24,000 nt of DNA from an uncultured archaeon (GTDB taxonomy: Archaea; Asgardarchaeota; Lokiarchaeia; Sigyniarchaeales; SOKP01): positions 14,578 to 38,577 of the forward strand of contig CAZWEM010000041.1 of NCBI GenBank assembly GCA_964632315.1, read 5' to 3'. The first letter of the stretch is position 1, and every line of letters begins with the position of its first letter. The notes under the pieces are model-generated. The model did no database searches. It was given only the letters and a program-made list of their open reading frames with translations, and had not been told where the DNA came from. Below, piece after piece: positions 3,354 to 13,060 of this stretch. The position numbers were made by a program, and so were the translations under genes.

Positions 3354-4076
3354 TTGTTAAGTCTAATTGGTTGGTTAGATGGTATATCTGCTACAGGTGT
3401 ACTAACTACAAATCTCATTATTGGGATATACTCACTGTATAAATCAAGGAAATTAAAAGCTAAGCTACTTACTGTAACTTCTTTAACAATATTCTTTATT
3501 GGATTGCTTTGGTTAGGTCCAACAACTGATTTTTTAAAAATCCTCATTACAGGAACAAATATTGAGTCTGTATGGTTTTATCCTGTAAGCGTACCTGTAA
3601 TATATCCGATTTTGAGCTATATGTGGGCTGCTCCAGGTATATTTTTTGGAATGTATATTGGAGGAGAATTAATTATGCCTAGGAAAAAATGGTATCTTCT
3701 AACTGTTTTTCTTATTATCTGCATTGCATACGAATTTTTCCTTTTCATAAATCCACAGGGTTCCTTTACATATACTGTTCCTCCTCCTGGTTCAGACATA
3801 ATTGATACATCTAGTGATTATTCCTACTATACTGCATTCTTTTTAATCGGATTTATTTTATCTATCATTTTATTCAATGGTATTGGTTTTTTAGTTAAAG
3901 CTTTCAAAGCAACAGGAGTAATAAAGAAGAAGTTTTTTGCTCTCGCTTTTGGTTTCATCTTATTTGCTATTATTGTAACTTTTGATGCATTAATACCTCC
4001 AGGTATTTTTTTATCAATTGTTAGATTTGGAATAATATTGAGTAGCATCCTATTATATATAGGAATTAAAACCTAA
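3354..4076 (+). CDS. polytopic membrane protein (about 7 TM), unknown function
   Basis: 240-aa ORF, almost entirely hydrophobic helices. TTG start at 3354 is preceded by AGGTGA (3342-3347) at 6-nt spacing. Divergent from the acylase gene. Confidence 0.6.
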   Translation: MLSLIGWLDGISATGVLTTNLIIGIYSLYKSRKLKAKLLTVTSLTIFFIGLLWLGPTTDFLKILITGTNIESVWFYPVSVPVIYPILSYMWAAPGIFFGMYIGGELIMPRKKWYLLTVFLIICIAYEFFLFINPQGSFTYTVPPPGSDIIDTSSDYSYYTAFFLIGFILSIILFNGIGFLVKAFKATGVIKKKFFALAFGFILFAIIVTFDALIPPGIFLSIVRFGIILSSILLYIGIKT

Positions 4077-4107: not shown

Positions 4108-5580
4108 TTATATTCTTAACTCTTGAATGTAATCAAAAATCGTATCAATTCTATTTTTAATTTGCCCAAATAAACCCTCTTCCTCAGATATTACCGAGTT
4201 AATTGCGGTTTTTAATCCATAATGACCCTCTGATACTAAAACTCTAATAGGCAAGGTTAATATCTCACTTAGTAACATTAACATTTCTTGTATAATTTTG
4301 ATGATTTTTGGTATCTGTTCCTCTGTTTGATCTCTCATTGTTTGATCTGACGATATCAAACCATTCTCCCGTTCCTTCCTTAGCTCTTCCCAGACATTTT
4401 CTTTAAGAGAAGCAAAATCTATACCCAAATTTTCTAACGCTAATTGAGCTCCTTCGAATAAGAATTCAATATCTTGCTTTCCAGAAAATGCTTTTATGTT
4501 TTCAATCATCTCCGAAGGAGCTAATCCTTCAAGAAACGCTACTAATAGATTATGATAGTCATTTATAACATCAATGGGGATGAAAAGAAAAGTAAACTCT
4601 TTGAATTGCTTAAATAAATATCCTGCAATTTTAGCGAATGTCTCATTTTCAAATATTTTTTCAACAAATCCTCCGTATTCATTTAAGAGATGTATGAATA
4701 GGAATCCAATAATTCTAATCATATCGTCTTCGTAGTTTTTAAAATAATCGAAGAATCTTTCTGGTTCCATATTAAGTTTTTCCCTAATGAGCTCTGCTGT
4801 CTTTTGTTTAACTCCCTCGAGTGGTTCATCTAAAAGTTCTTCAATTTTATCCAAAGAGAGAATTTCTTGAATTTTTTCAATAAAATCAGATTCTGTTTCG
4901 ATCTCTACATCTTCATCAACTTCATCAATAACAACATTAGAATTCAATTTATCCTGTAATTTTTCGGAAGTTAATTCTCTCCATTCTATCTTATCATAGA
5001 TCTTACACGTCAATTGTAAGCATTCCTCTCCTCTCGCCATACACTTTTGCTCTATAATACGAATCCTATATTCATTTTTCTTCACTTTTAAAATATAATT
5101 TGCCACACTTTCAAGCATACCAGCTAGTCCACATGCCAAGCCCTCTGTTTCTTTATTCACGATTTTGTCGAATCCAAATGTATCCATCTCATCATTTCCA
5201 TAATCAGCACAAATGGGACATCTTTTAATTTTTAAAAGATAATCATTATACTTCGAATCTTTTTTTTCAATTATTTCATAGCTTAGATCCTCTTCTGAGA
5301 GTTCTTTCCCAAATACCACAACCCATAATAATTCAAAGTATTCAAGAACTTTTTTCGGGTTTCCTGGCATAAATCGAAAAATTGTGGTGTGTCGATCACA
5401 TGACTCAAAAGTAGCACGTTTTCCTATCTCCCTTAAAATTAGTAGGGAGTCTTCTTCATTTTCTGTAATCTCATGTATTTCTTTCAAGATTTCACGATAG
5501 AGGAGGGTATAGAATAATGAATTGGTGCTCCTTCCAAAAATTTTAGTTATTTTTTTTAGTAACCATTGGACGGTTCCCAT
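4108..5580 (-). CDS. V4R-domain protein with acidic linker and about 250-aa C-terminal helical domain of unknown function
   Basis: V4R-like cysteine/glycine pattern: CPICADYG...GLACGLAGMLESVANYI...IIEQKCMARGEECLQLTCKIY. An acidic linker (VVIDEVDEDVEIETESDF) and an unassigned helical region follow. I moved the start from 5676 to the ATG at 5580 (MGTVQWLL). GGAGG at 5589-5593 lies 8 nt upstream, and the upstream gene's TAA (5582-5584) is 1 nt away. Confidence 0.7.
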   Translation of the reverse strand: MGTVQWLLKKITKIFGRSTNSLFYTLLYREILKEIHEITENEEDSLLILREIGKRATFESCDRHTTIFRFMPGNPKKVLEYFELLWVVVFGKELSEEDLSYEIIEKKDSKYNDYLLKIKRCPICADYGNDEMDTFGFDKIVNKETEGLACGLAGMLESVANYILKVKKNEYRIRIIEQKCMARGEECLQLTCKIYDKIEWRELTSEKLQDKLNSNVVIDEVDEDVEIETESDFIEKIQEILSLDKIEELLDEPLEGVKQKTAELIREKLNMEPERFFDYFKNYEDDMIRIIGFLFIHLLNEYGGFVEKIFENETFAKIAGYLFKQFKEFTFLFIPIDVINDYHNLLVAFLEGLAPSEMIENIKAFSGKQDIEFLFEGAQLALENLGIDFASLKENVWEELRKERENGLISSDQTMRDQTEEQIPKIIKIIQEMLMLLSEILTLPIRVLVSEGHYGLKTAINSVISEEEGLFGQIKNRIDTIFDYIQELRI

Positions 5581-5581
5581 A

Positions 5582-6079
5582 TTATTTTCCTCCTGTATAA
5601 ATGTATACATGTCTACAAGAATTATGACCAAAGACTTTTGATTCATTGATATCTTGCATTTCAATCTTAAATCCATTTTGTCTTGAATTAATTATGTTTA
5701 TAAATTCAACTACCATACTACCAATTATCTCACAACCAGCAACATTTATATCTGAAAAATGGTATTTACATAGCGCACAATCATTATCTTGAATAGATAT
5801 CCTTTTGTTTACTTCGTCAACTTCAATTGAAATATTGCTATTTAATACGTTTCTATAAATCGTTGCCAAGACGTCCTTAATATTGGTAAAAGTAACTTTT
5901 TCGATTGGCCTCCAAGTATTTAGGTATGTATGAGCAATGTTTTTCCCCATTCTTCTAAGTCTACTTCTCACTTCGGTGATGTTGTTCCTTTTCATAAATC
6001 GTTGGAGATGATAAATTGCATTTCTCAACTGATTCATAGTCGCATTCGTTTGCACCAAATCAGCTCTTGAATAATTCAT
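5582..6079 (-). CDS. small V4R-domain protein
   Basis: 165 aa. The C-terminal half has CALCKYHF...NVAGCEIIGSMVVEFINII...ESKVFGHNSCRHVYI, which fits the V4R pattern C-x2-C ... C-x3-G ... E ... C. The size matches stand-alone archaeal V4R proteins. It is translationally coupled to the next gene. Confidence 0.55.
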   Translation of the reverse strand: MNYSRADLVQTNATMNQLRNAIYHLQRFMKRNNITEVRSRLRRMGKNIAHTYLNTWRPIEKVTFTNIKDVLATIYRNVLNSNISIEVDEVNKRISIQDNDCALCKYHFSDINVAGCEIIGSMVVEFINIINSRQNGFKIEMQDINESKVFGHNSCRHVYIYTGGK

Positions 6080-9132: not shown

Positions 9133-11691
9133 TTATTTAATAATTATTGTTGGTCTTCCCGGTAGAGATTTAAGAGCCTTTGGATCTTTTGAATCGATTT
9201 CTTTTAATACATTTACATTAGCATCGTATTTTGTCTCTAACATGCTAGAGATTTCATTAAAAAATAAGAATTCTTCACTTGCTTTGATTGGAGAGGGCTG
9301 AAATTTACCTAGATTTTTAAGTACGGAGGACACAATTTGATTTATAAGTTTACCATGTTTTTTAAAATGCTCTTTTTTCATAAGAACCTTTAATATTTCA
9401 CCTTGATCCTTGGATTGTTTAACTTGTTGGAGCAGCTCTTCGAAAAGATTAAATTTCCAATCATTAGCTATGATTATATCGATCTTGTCGATTTTTTCTT
9501 TTTTAATTATATGAATTATGTGGTTTATCGATTCCAATGTATCATTCATTAGTTTCCATTTATATTCATTAACGGGATTTAAAATACCATTATCATATTC
9601 TGGCCAAGAAGATACACTTAAAAAATCTTCATTGCCAAACAAGTTCCAAATTTCTTCAGTTACGTGTGGAATAAATGGATGTAATAGTTTAACAAGTCTT
9701 TGAGAACAGTAAGAATAGACACTTTTATTAACTTTTTCAAGTTTATATTTATTAAATTCATTTGTAAATTGGATTAAATCATTAATGGCATCCCTTATAT
9801 CAATTTGTTCCATATGCTTTGTCACATTCTTAATAGTTTTGTTTAGAAGATATTTGATCAAAGTATCATGAATAACTTCATTATTTCTAATAGAATCTGG
9901 TTTCTCAATCAAAAGTGCAAAACTATTCCGAATAAATTTATGCGCAAATTGAATACCTTCATTTGACCATTCTAACCCCGATTTTGGACTAGCCCCAAAT
10001 AGAATGAAAAATCTAGCTGCATCAGCACCAAATTTATTCATTATTCCAATCGGATCTACTGTATTTCCTAAACTTTTGCTCATTTTAACACTTTTGAATA
10101 TGTATTTTGTTCCACATCTTTTACAATTTTCATCATTCATCTCGGATTTCATTGCAAATACTTCGCAATTAGGACAATACGGATGTATTTTATTAATCAT
10201 TCCTTGGGTAAGTAATCTTTGAAATGGCTCACTGTTTGAATGTAATCCTAAATCTCTTGCAACTTTGGTAAAAAATCTTGCGTATAGCAAATGAAGAATA
10301 GCATGTTCAATGCCTCCAATATAGAGATCAACATTCATCCAATAATCTACTCTTTTCTTGGAATATGGAAGATTTGATGATTTAGGATCACAATATCTAT
10401 AGAAATACCATGAACTATCAACAAATGTATCCATTGTATCTGTTTCTCTTATTGCTTTTTTATTGCATTTAGGGCACTTTACATTAAGAAAAGATTCACT
10501 AGTCAATAATGGATTTCCTTTACCAGTGAATTGAACATCTTTTGGTAGCTTTATTGGGAGCTGATCGATGGGAGCGGGAATAACACCACAATCCTCGCAA
10601 TATATAATTGGAATAGGACATCCCCAGTATCTCTGCCTTGAAATTAACCAATCTCTTAACTTATAATTAACAGTCGCATACCCACTGTTTAATTCTTCAA
10701 GTTTTTTAGTGATTGCATTTATCGCGCTTTTGTTATCAATACCATCGAATTCTCCAGAATTGACTAAAATTCCCTCTCCCTCAAACGCACGTGACATCTT
10801 TTTGGAATCTAATTCATAATCATAAGGTTGGATTACGACTCTTATTGGAATATCATATTTTTTGGCAAATTCAAAATCTCGTTGGTCATGTCCTGGAACG
10901 GCCATTACTGCTCCGGCACCATATTCATATACAACAAAATTCCCAACATAAATAGGGATTTGTTGCTTTGTCATTGGATTTAATGCTTTTTTCCCGATAA
11001 GCATCCCTTTCTTTTTCACCTCTATATCTGTGCGTTCAAACTTATCCTGCTGCATAACCTCTTTATAAAATTTTTTGTATTTTTCCTCATAATCTGTTTT
11101 TTCCACCCATTCTTTTATCCATGGGTGCTCAGGGGCAAAAACCATAAATGTTACTCCATATAAAGTATCAGGTCTAGTAGTAAAAATATCAATCGTTCGT
11201 TCTTCTCCAACAATTTGAAATTTAATGATAGTCCCTTGTGATCTCCCAATCCAATTCCGTTGCATAGTTTTTACTTTTTCTGGCCAATCTAACTGATCTA
11301 AACCCTCTAATAATTCTTCCGCGTAATCTCTTATTTTTAAAAACCATTGCGTCAGGAATTTTTGTTCTACATTGCTGTTGCATCTCCAACATTTTCCATT
11401 TAAGACTTGCTCATTAGCTAAAACTGTAGAGCAATTGGGACACCAATTTACATAAGATTCTTGTCTATAAGCTAAACCCTTCTCAAACATCTTAATAAAG
11501 AACCATTGGTCCCATTTATAGTAGTTAGGATCGTGACTAAATATAGTCCGAGTCCAATCGTAAGACAAACCAATTCTTTTTTGTTGCTTTTTCATTAACT
11601 CGATATTTGAATTTGTCCATTCCTCGGGATTAGCGCCGTGATCAATCGCCGCATTCTCAGCAGGGAGTCCAAAACTTTTATGGTATTTCAC
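9133..11691 (-). CDS. leuS: leucyl-tRNA synthetase (bacterial type), major portion downstream of an in-frame TAA
   Basis: 852 codons with [12 protein letters not shown]-1 CPNC...CWRC, CP1 editing-domain motif [25 protein letters not shown]...CPKC...[15 protein letters not shown], and KMSKS (VKMSKSLGN). The first codon is GTG at 11689-11691, directly abutting the TAA at 11692-11694 and in the same frame as the upstream fragment. Confidence 0.9.
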
Positions 11692-11712
11692 TTATTGAGA
11701 AATACTATCATA
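11674..11712 (-). other. 30-nt insertion in leuS carrying an in-frame TAA within a predicted hairpin and flanked by identical AGT codons
   Basis: Minus-strand sequence: TATG-ATA-GTATTTC-tcaaTAAgt-GAAATAC-CATA-AAAGT. A 7-bp stem (11699-11705 with 11683-11689) is extended by the 4-bp TATG/CATA helix across a 3-nt bulge. The TAA (11692-11694) sits in the 9-nt loop. AGT codons lie at 11704-11706 and 11674-11676. Deleting exactly 30 nt restores [11 protein letters not shown]. Confidence 0.6.
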
Positions 11713-11943
11713 GCCCATAGGGTACAATACATTGAACCCCTGCATTCGTTTGAATCGAGCTACAGAATCTCCTATTGTATAATTACGGAGATGTCCCATA
11801 TGAAGGCTTCCAGAGGGATAAGGGTACATTTCTAATACGTAATATTTATTTTTGTTTTTATCTTGTTTTACTTCAAAAATTTTCTCGCTGTCCCATTTGT
11901 CTTGCCATTTTTTTTCTATCTTTCCAAAATTATAATCTTCCAC
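11692..11943 (-). CDS. leuS: leucyl-tRNA synthetase N-terminal fragment (83 codons, HIGH motif) ending at an in-frame TAA
   Basis: (V/M)[24 protein letters not shown]...[44 protein letters not shown]. This is a typical LeuRS N-terminus with HMGH. I place the start at GTG 11941-11943. The 60 extra upstream codons in the ORF track are hydrophobic low-complexity sequence overlapping the opposite-strand lipS start. Confidence 0.8.
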
Positions 11944-12058
11944 AGTGATTATAACCACCAAAATATCTAAAATTATTATTAAAATATGATTTGAAATCAA
12001 TAATTCAATAAATTTTTTTTGAAAAAAGCTTATCTTTTTGTTTGTATTATGAAAAGTA
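11944..12058. promoter_or_regulatory. divergent promoter region between leuS and the lipS-lplA-lipS-cofE-cofD operon
   Basis: 115-bp AT-rich spacer between divergent starts. On the minus strand, TATAAT lies 7 nt before the leuS GTG and GGTGG lies 11 nt before it. No element can be assigned confidently. Confidence 0.3.
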
Positions 12059-13060
12059 ATGACTGTGGATAAAATTAGAGTGTCAATTGGAAGTGCTTCA
12101 GTTCTGGGATTATATAATAGCACTCGGTTTAAAGTTCCTCCAACTACCTGCTATATTATGACATTTAACTCAAATCAATGTTCTGCTAATTGTGCATTTT
12201 GTCCTCAAGGAAGAGAATCTAAAGGCTCAGATGAGCTATTATCTCGTGTAAATTGGCCAGTTTTTAAGCTTAAAGAATTCTTAACTAAATTTAGTTATCT
12301 AAGTCCTTCAAAGCGTTTTAAACGTCTGTGTCTTCAAACCCTAAATTATCCAAATAATGTTCAAGATGTTATCGAGATCATCAGCAAAGTACGAGAAAAG
12401 TCAGACATTCCAATCTCAATTGCGATCCCACCAATCACGAGAAAAAATCTAAAAGAAATTAAGAATCTTGGAGTCGAAAGAATTGGGATTGCTTTAGATG
12501 CATCTACTCCTGAAATTTTTGAGAATATCAAGGGTAAAGGAGTTAATGGTCCATATACTTGGGACTCTCACTTCAAAGCCTTGAAAGACGCGTTAAATAT
12601 ATTTTCAGAGGGATTTGTAACTACCCATTTAATAGTCGGTTTAGGAGAATCAGCTAAAGATATTCTTAGTCTGATATATAATTTGAAAAATTTAAGAATT
12701 AAAGTTGGGCTTTTTGCATTTACATCTATTAAGGGTACGAAATTAGAATTGCATAGCCCTCCAGATCTACTCTATTTTAGAAAAATACAATTAGGAAGAT
12801 ATTTAATCCTGGAAGAAAATAAGAATTTAAACGATTTCATATTTAACAGTAAGAATGAAGTTGTCAAATTTGATATAAATAAGAGAGATTTAGAAAGGTT
12901 AATCACTCAAACTGATGCATTTCTGACATCTGGATGTCCTGGATGTAATCGACCTTATTACACGTCTCGACCAACAGGTCCTATATACAATTATCCTAGA
13001 AAATTAAATGAAATGGAAAAAAAAGAGATATTTAATACCCTTTTGGAATATATTAAATAA
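12059..13060 (+). CDS. radical SAM protein, LipS1/LipS2-type lipoyl synthase component
   Basis: 333 aa with the radical-SAM cluster motif CSANCAFC, plus additional Cys ([11 protein letters not shown]) that could bind an auxiliary cluster. It is distantly BioB/LipA-like and adjacent to lplA and a second, different radical SAM gene. I cannot say which of the two is LipS1 and which LipS2 without an alignment. Confidence 0.7.

Follow-up and report, generated by a model that had tools for sequence, protein, structure and literature searches.

Introns of the bulge-helix-bulge (BHB) type are removed from archaeal transcripts enzymatically, and cleavage by EndA followed by joining by RtcB is established for archaeal tRNA, rRNA, and cbf5 mRNA (PMC2738675, PMC7714728, PMC4090602). 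The canonical EndA substrate, termed hBHBh', is a 4-bp helix set between two 3-nt bulges (PMC7714728, PMC4090602). In pre-tRNA the exon contributes four nucleotides to the central helix, followed by its last two, unpaired in the helix, so that anticodon positions 34 and 35 lie inside it and the splice falls at 37/38, and the reported archaeal tRNA introns are 11 to 129 nt long (PMC4090602). BHB introns inside archaeal protein-coding genes are very rare. One is known from the cbf5 pre-mRNA of Crenarchaeota (Desulfurococcales/Sulfolobales; Watanabe 2002, Yokobori 2009, PMC2738675), and the mRNA of Haloferax volcanii HVO_1309 has a BHB intron in its 5' untranslated region (PMC7714728). A 2020 paper gives cbf5 mRNA as the sole other reported mRNA BHB intron beside the Haloferax one (PMC7714728), and a 2025 structural paper on archaeal splicing endonucleases cites the cbf5 work alone for pre-mRNA splicing. 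Our search of the full-text literature, outside which most subscription journals lie, turned up no earlier account of a BHB intron in leuS or in Asgard protein-coding genes generally. Here we describe a 30-nt block that interrupts leuS, the gene for leucyl-tRNA synthetase (LeuRS), in a 24,000-nt stretch of contig CAZWEM010000041.1 from an uncultured archaeon (the whole stretch is called the window below), and that is very probably an intron of this type.

The leuS gene occupies the minus strand of the window as two open reading frames (ORFs) that adjoin in the same frame, 11692-12123 and 9133-11691 (852 codons). An earlier note, made from the letters of the window alone, had the abutment, the shared frame, and the downstream ORF right, while the outer end it gave for the upstream ORF, 11943, is an internal GTG. 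Its other descriptions of the sequence, with their coordinates, were borne out. The strand reads ...CCT ATG GGC TAT GAT, then AGT ATT TCT CAA TAA GTG AAA TAC CAT AAA, then AGT TTT GGA CTC CCT GCT GAG..., which places an in-frame block of 30 nt containing a TAA (11706-11677) between ...PMGYD and SFGLPAEN. The gene is accordingly divided as follows.

11707-11943, minus strand: predicted leuS exon 1, 79 codons from the GTG start as called, ending ...PMGYD; homologues start at the equivalent position
11677-11706, minus strand: predicted 30-nt intron, AGUAUUUCUCAAUAAGUGAAAUACCAUAAA, missing from L006
9133-11676, minus strand: predicted leuS exon 2, 847 codons plus the stop, starting SFGLPAEN...

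Close homologues that cover the site have a contiguous PMGYDS(F/Y)G(L/M)PAEN (120 of 120 among the matches listed). The next relative, contig L006, reads GAT TCT TTT with no block, and other relatives lacking the intron likewise have a contiguous GYDSFG or GYDSYG motif. When spliced in silico, the protein of the window aligned without gaps across the site to the solved LeuRS of E. coli and T. thermophilus, and it is gaplessly colinear with E. coli LeuRS. Because both the homologues and the solved enzymes are contiguous at this point, leuS of the window has 30 extra nucleotides, in agreement with the earlier statements that the insertion is exactly 30 nt and that it parts the otherwise contiguous motif P-x-G-W/Y-D-A/S-F-G-L-P-A-E.

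The block and its flanks can be drawn as a BHB, with the following parts (a slash within a bulge marks the predicted cut).

11713-11716, minus strand: outer helix A, 5' strand GGGC in exon 1, partner GUUU at 11675-11672; 100% paired in the 13 variants described below
11709-11712, minus strand: central 4-bp helix, 5' strand UAUG in exon 1, partner CAUA at 11682-11679; invariant and 100% paired
11706-11708, minus strand: bulge 1 (AU/A), predicted 5' splice site 11707/11706, from the BHB geometry of PMC4090602 and the register test
11683-11705, minus strand: helix B inside the intron, 7 bp, arms GUAUUUC (11705-11699) and GAAAUAC (11689-11683)
11698-11690, minus strand: 9-nt loop of helix B, UCAAUAAGU, containing the TAA at 11694-11692
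11679-11682, minus strand: central 4-bp helix, 3' strand CAUA in the intron
11676-11678, minus strand: bulge 2 (AA/A), predicted 3' splice site 11677/11676, from the same geometry and register test
11672-11675, minus strand: outer helix A, 3' strand GUUU in exon 2, also found by RNAalifold

The RNA order from 5' to 3' is GGGC, UAUG, AU/A, GUAUUUC-UCAAUAAGU-GAAAUAC, CAUA, AA/A, and GUUU. The arrangement has the hallmarks of the hBHBh' motif: a 4-bp central helix, 3-nt bulges (AUA and AAA) on opposite strands, and both flanking helices. We applied the pre-tRNA geometry of PMC4090602 to the leuS site, and cutting after the second nucleotide of either bulge takes out exactly 30 nt and joins GAU/AGU UUU, which encodes GYD-SFG. 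This exact fit is obtained with the 3' end of exon 1 paired to the 3' end of the intron, in agreement with PMC4090602; the alternative topology, in which the intron's 5' end and exon 2 would form the central helix, fits in no register. The hairpin of 7 bp, extended by 4 bp across a 3-nt bulge, that the earlier note had recorded is the 5' half of this BHB, the rest being the AAA bulge and the GGGC/GUUU pairing. That hairpin, GUAUUUC/GAAAUAC, is present in the minimum free energy (MFE) fold, and UAUG/CAUA can lengthen it across the bulge as described.

The site was then compared across related genes. The sample comprised the window, contigs L001-L005, and matches from two scans, one of metagenomes that was anchored in the exons only (ATGGGNTAYGA-N20-50-TTYGGNNTNCCNGCNGARAA) and one of species-representative genomes that used the hairpin pattern of the intron. 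Thirty-nine metagenome matches with a 28-nt gap were discarded as false positives, arising from the upstream MGY(D/E)VL motif of ordinary leuS. There remained 13 distinct variants at this position (site 1), that of the window and 12 others, of which 11 are 30 nt long, one is 29 nt (L009), and one is 31 nt (L038). Of nine registers tried for each variant, one alone forms a 4-bp central helix, and in all 13 variants it restores MGYDSFG(L/M)P. The rule holds for L009 and L038 as well, where the length of the block is not a multiple of three.

Pairing is preserved across these variants. Standard pairs fill 95.9% of the pair cells of the alignment, versus 38-52% in controls with the 3' partners shifted 1-3 columns along. 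Helix B, with 7-9 bp, is 92% paired and shows compensatory changes at four of its pairs, such as G-C to A-U. Helix A is paired throughout, and C-G/U.G and G.U/G-C swap at the wobble positions of the Gly and Ser codons. Shuffles that matched the observed pairing, compensatory-pair count, or covariation score numbered 0-1 of 500, and RNAalifold recovered helices A and B with no structure supplied. An alignment of orthologues, as the earlier note had suggested, found the block missing from some genes and free of a stop in two variants, in addition to the covariation of the hairpin.

The shape of the element carries little weight by itself. We scanned the window for BHB motifs, allowing G.U pairs, and used as a control random sequences from a first-order Markov model (dinucleotide frequencies) of the window. 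Counts over the whole window were not above random (24 real vs 31 Markov, 5 vs 4.6, and 2 vs 1.6), the last pair being for motifs in which helix A spans 4 bp or more and helix B 7 bp or more. BHB shape alone is not significant, since about 1.6 such motifs arise per randomized 24-kb window. The significance lies in the coincidence of the BHB with the insertion boundaries defined by homology. The chance of a BHB falling on such a boundary is 1.63/(2 x 24,000 x 47) = 7e-7 per register, or about 3e-6 in all for the four permitted excision registers, as derived from the same scan. The remaining BHB-shaped matches in the window and the related loci are on the wrong strand or break the frame.

Several observations weigh against a BHB intron at this site. 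The central helix gives no covariation evidence because it never varies, and the need to encode Tyr-Asp places a further constraint on its 5' strand. Folding of the 76-nt region is not more stable than that of shuffles (z = -0.46), and the BHB is not the MFE structure of the 45-nt core, lying 2.2 kcal/mol above it (-5.1 vs -7.3 kcal/mol). Helix A of the window is weak, with one G-C and three G.U pairs. The exact spliced protein was not found in the protein collection, and a second protein search returned no full-length product of the window's allele. Genes for EndA and RtcB of the host were not located in a view limited to 24 kb.

Taking both sides together, we consider it very probable that the 30-nt block at 11706-11677 on the minus strand is an archaeal BHB intron within the leuS coding sequence of an Asgard genome. 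Excision at the RNA level was among the five options of the earlier note, and it is the one to which the BHB register and the covariation among the 13 variants point. We infer that the splicing reaction on leuS mRNA would be carried out by the EndA and RtcB of the host. In the pre-mRNA, the end of exon 1 would pair with the start of exon 2 (GGGC/GUUU) and UAUG with CAUA, while the remainder of the intron would form the 7-bp hairpin. EndA would cleave after the second nucleotide of both bulges (AU/A and AA/A). RtcB would then ligate the exons to give ...GGC UAU GAU/AGU UUU GGA..., encoding GYD-SFG, with an expected RNA junction of ...GGCUAUGAU/AGUUUUGGACUC..., and would probably also close the 30-nt intron into a circle with an expected junction of ...CCAUAAA/AGUAUUUC.... 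Translation of the mature mRNA would yield a single bacterial-type LeuRS of 926 residues. The unspliced mRNA has the in-frame UAA and would therefore give only an 82-residue fragment (79 residues from exon 1 plus I-S-Q). Asgard archaea are reported to have an (alpha-beta)2 EndA with an L1 loop that confers a broad substrate range (PMC5829648), and in some Asgard genomes more than 90% of the tRNA genes reportedly contain introns (PMC11291895); for these reasons the splicing machinery is expected to be both present and busy.

The earlier note had given first place to translational bypassing of the type seen in T4 gene 60 and the byp elements of Magnusiomyces, wherein the ribosome would take off at one AGU, slide over the hairpin and UAA, and land on the second AGU. 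In the window the block is indeed enclosed by identical AGT codons (11706-11704 and 11676-11674), with a stop and a hairpin between them, and the note was correct on their positions. The window is alone in this respect: the codons before the block and after it are AGT and AGC in 4 of the 13 variants, TGT and AGC in 7, and AAT and AGC in 1. Matched codons are thus a property of a single variant, and in the eight where TGT or AAT would be the take-off codon and AGC the landing codon, re-pairing of the peptidyl-tRNA would be impossible. The stop stands three codons past the supposed take-off codon rather than adjacent to it, and it too is variable, being TAA in nine variants, TGA in two, and lacking in L023/L028 (...SISYLTKYHKS...) and L054 (...SISQCGKYHKS...). 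The GTG that directly follows the TAA in the window is GAG, GGG, or other in relatives. Because none of TAA, the AGT repeat, and GTG is conserved, bypassing, readthrough, and reinitiation are all argued against. What the variants do conserve, pairing between the exons and between exon and intron, is not required by bypassing, and neither readthrough nor termination with reinitiation accounts for it. The resemblance to T4 gene 60 is confined to the window, with its coding gap that contains a stop and a hairpin; the matched codons and adjacent stop that are hallmarks of gene 60 are not conserved in leuS, whereas the exon-intron pairings are. We know of no description of bypassing in archaea, and we regard it as very improbable here.

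About as improbable is that the block is an inactivating insertion with a 3-nt target duplication in a pseudogene, or an assembly error, with LeuRS supplied from another gene. The 24 kb in view leaves room for a second leuS. Contig L057 has an additional in-frame stop that arose by substitution about 440 nt downstream of intron 1 (NWISKS-stop-GTT versus the consensus NWIGRSEGT); this stop may reflect a sequencing error, variation, or decay of the copy. Against this explanation stands the recurrence of the block in independent assemblies of several projects. The 820-residue protein matches P0004 and P0005 are the downstream part of leuS on five contigs, L001-L005, from independent Joint Genome Institute (JGI) and European Nucleotide Archive (ENA) assemblies, and the DNA of these contigs contains the TAA-bearing block, with an N-terminal ORF of 83-87 residues just upstream of the 820-residue part. 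JGI data also hold a near-identical copy of the window's 852-residue product. The recurrence of the stop-bearing block in independent JGI, ENA, and NCBI assemblies excludes a sequencing error. As noted above, the variants do not conserve the AGT "duplication".

Substitution rates likewise speak against inactivation. Exon 2 of the window, compared with L001, L006, and L059, has a dN/dS of 0.08-0.09. For exon 1 in the same comparisons, pN is 0.08-0.16 and pS is 0.68-0.75, with synonymous sites saturated. The block persists in leuS genes with proteins only 64-72% identical, and exon 2 is open in all of them over 847-850 codons. By these measures, both leuS exons are under strong purifying selection across lineages with saturated synonymous sites, and the gene is functional.

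Less probable still is readthrough of the stop, or plain translation in the stop-free variants, to yield LeuRS with a 10-residue insertion in its catalytic core. The block is in frame in 11 of the 13 variants, and in the two that lack a stop the unspliced mRNA would be translatable. The 29-nt block of L009 and the 31-nt block of L038 shift the frame, so for these two readthrough is ruled out by length. The residues of the inserted "peptide" change freely while pairing in the RNA is preserved, the stop context is not conserved, and the motif is contiguous in every one of the listed homologues covering the site and in solved LeuRS structures.

A LeuRS split by termination at UAA and reinitiation at the adjoining GUG, with assembly of the two chains, is as doubtful as readthrough. 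A split LeuRS is known in Aquifex, at a different position, and in the window UAA is directly followed by GUG within and beside the 9-nt loop as the earlier note had described. In close relatives the GUG is GAG or GGG, and in L001-L005 gene callers were forced to a start 32 codons downstream. Stop-free and frameshifting variants exist, and the break would strike an invariant motif inside the Rossmann fold. A self-splicing group I or group II intron is dismissed on size, the block having only 30 nt versus a core of hundreds of nucleotides, and it has no Rfam match.

Examination of the related genes revealed a second site. In L023/L028, L049, L054, and L065, a 30-nt block containing stop codons separates ...DPNYYK from WDQWFF, 55 codons farther downstream than site 1.

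L023:1273-1302, minus strand: predicted intron 2
L028:10553-10582, plus strand: predicted intron 2
L049:4278-4307, minus strand: predicted intron 2
L054:8368-8397, minus strand: predicted intron 2
L065, about 3401-3430, plus strand: predicted intron 2
Window, about 11511/11512, minus strand: the intron-less equivalent of site 2

Here helix A consists of A-U, U.G, and C-G pairs, the central helix pairs CUAU with GUAG or AUAG, and helix B has 4-9 bp. With bulges AA/A and AG/A, the sole valid register restores NYYKWDQW. Pairing fills 96.7% of the cells, versus 27-47% in slid controls. The two sites are occupied separately in some genes, with L065 having intron 2 without intron 1 and the window having intron 1 without intron 2. 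We also scanned 151 kb of Asgard loci for any BHB motif with an excision that would fuse two ORFs. This generic scan recovered the stop- or frameshift-bearing leuS introns for which it was designed, and otherwise only implausible matches; it misses L009 and L037, where helix B is interrupted.

Other leuS genes depart from the common form in different ways. An insertion at the site 1 position in L031 (4662-4729, minus strand) and L036 (10673-10740, minus strand) was rejected as a variant, as no BHB register fits. These are G+C-rich soil LeuRS genes with a 33-nt, in-frame, stop-free insertion, MGYE-RPITRPGGLEPR-FGVPAE, which may be a genuine protein insertion. In L063:3501-4040 and L064:3501-4040 (GCA_019058425.1 and a Logan assembly), leuS homology ends abruptly after ...NWCPKC, at about codon 161. 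Beyond the break is AT-rich unrelated sequence and then, about 800 nt on, an ORF of 1215 residues with no Pfam match; the protein cluster has 16 member sequences. The break could be a large insertion, a rearrangement, or an intron of another kind. In L066:3001-3843, from a Hermodarchaeota metagenome-assembled genome (MAG; GCA_048885945.1), leuS is called as 280 residues ending ...EWVKGTEHEKYFTF before a stop, downstream of which G+C-richer unrelated sequence runs to the end of the contig; this may be a further interruption or a chimeric contig end.

The site 1 intron is far more conserved than expected of neutral sequence, with divergence at synonymous sites taken as the reference. Between the window and L059, one of the 30 intron positions differs, against 71% of the exon synonymous sites. 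For L001, L058, and L059 together, the difference from the window intron is 1-2 of 30 positions against exon synonymous differences of 57-75%, and even the loop sequence CAAUAAG is kept. The comparison with synonymous divergence replaced a first conservation test that was weak, in that 5% of 30-nt exon windows also had at most one mismatch between the window and L001.

The intron is also patchily distributed. In a neighbour-joining tree of LeuRS the intron-bearing genes are scattered, with the window and L001 sister to the intron-less P0002/P0003 and L009 beside the intron-less P0015/P0021. L030, which has the intron, is 92% identical to the intron-less P0083. When L030 is aligned with L060, which has no intron, the two are 92-98% identical from 140 nt after the site to past the end of the gene, versus only 54-84% in the 5' 390 nt of leuS, and they cannot be aligned upstream. 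The 5' segment of L030 is nearer to other intron-bearing alleles. By this pattern of identity, L030 and L060 are mosaic alleles with a breakpoint near intron site 2.

Near-identical introns (1-4 differences in 30) in spite of saturated synonymous sites, the patchy distribution, and the recombinant segment of L030/L060 suggest lateral spread or sequence-specific selection. Either the intron may be spread or lost by recombination of leuS 5' segments, or its own sequence may be under selection. The target of selection could be the circular RNA released by excision, or a link that makes LeuRS synthesis depend on how active the tRNA-splicing machinery is. In the Thermoproteales, BHB introns have been proposed to transpose on a large scale between tRNA genes (PMC4090602). 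That BHB mini-introns constitute a small mobile or selected class of Asgard mRNA introns, as opposed to passive relics, is an idea we advance tentatively and hold to be rather doubtful.

The leuS element can now be placed among the systems introduced at the outset. With the cbf5 intron it shares a small size, a position in archaeal coding sequence, a BHB-like structure, the status of an EndA substrate (predicted for leuS), patchiness among related lineages, and mis-annotation of the gene by callers. It differs from cbf5 in the gene, an essential aminoacyl-tRNA synthetase, and in the phylum, Asgard; in its strict canonical hBHBh' motif; and in the presence of two intron sites in the leuS family. 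Splicing of cbf5 is experimentally shown, whereas for leuS it is predicted. The BHB introns of pre-tRNA and pre-rRNA have the same 4-bp helix, 3-nt bulges, flanking helices, predicted cut positions, and expected dependence on EndA and RtcB, and the size of the leuS intron is within the range for tRNA introns. Unlike them, the leuS exon halves must also encode P-M-G-Y-D and S-F-G, and no tRNA body aids recognition. As with HVO_1309, an mRNA would be the substrate of the archaeal splicing endonuclease, although the HVO_1309 intron, being in an untranslated region, interrupts no reading frame. Among eukaryotes, HAC1 and XBP1 have a tiny intron defined by structure (26 nt in XBP1), which is removed by the endonuclease IRE1 and followed by ligation by RtcB or Trl1. 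The likeness to leuS is a small structured intron with splicing that determines the protein made. IRE1, twin stem-loops, and stress regulation belong to the eukaryote side, and no homology is implied.

The genes around leuS are housekeeping in nature and include those for penicillin amidase, thioredoxin, ferredoxin, triosephosphate isomerase, radical-SAM enzymes, lipoate ligase, F420 ligase, and CofD, as well as a MoxR/DUF58 operon. These neighbours are syntenic with related contigs, and the G+C content of the window is about 31%. The best LeuRS protein matches are from Promethearchaeota, Lokiarchaeota, Thor-, Hod-, and Hermodarchaeota, and genome records with the same intron are titled "MAG: Promethearchaeota archaeon". 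The names of these homologues and the titles of these records place the host among the Asgard archaea (Promethearchaeota/Lokiarchaeota). No record of the window's own leuS ORF was found in the contig index. Neither the window nor the related loci yielded a tRNA gene, and the window matched no Rfam family. The hairpin GTATTTC-N9-GAAATAC, for which the earlier note had proposed a genome scan, is present in the window only once.

Elsewhere in the window, minus-strand ORFs of 522 residues (4108-5676) and 165 residues (5582-6079) overlap by 95 nt in different frames. Neither has a Pfam match, and the sole BHB-shaped match near this pair (5765-5713, 53 nt) would not join the frames.

Canonical BHB introns would thus be present at two sites in the gene for an essential aminoacyl-tRNA synthetase of Asgard archaea, to which eukaryotes are more closely related than to any other known archaea, and would extend enzymatic mRNA splicing to a new phylum and a new gene. 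Their presence would explain a recurrent annotation error, in which leuS of many Loki MAGs is called as two genes, as "partial", or as a protein of 820-852 residues. A short, testable, and phylogenetically patchy intron would offer a system in which to follow the gain, loss, and spread of BHB introns in coding genes, and may bear on the origin of eukaryotic RtcB-dependent mRNA splicing, as in HAC1/XBP1.

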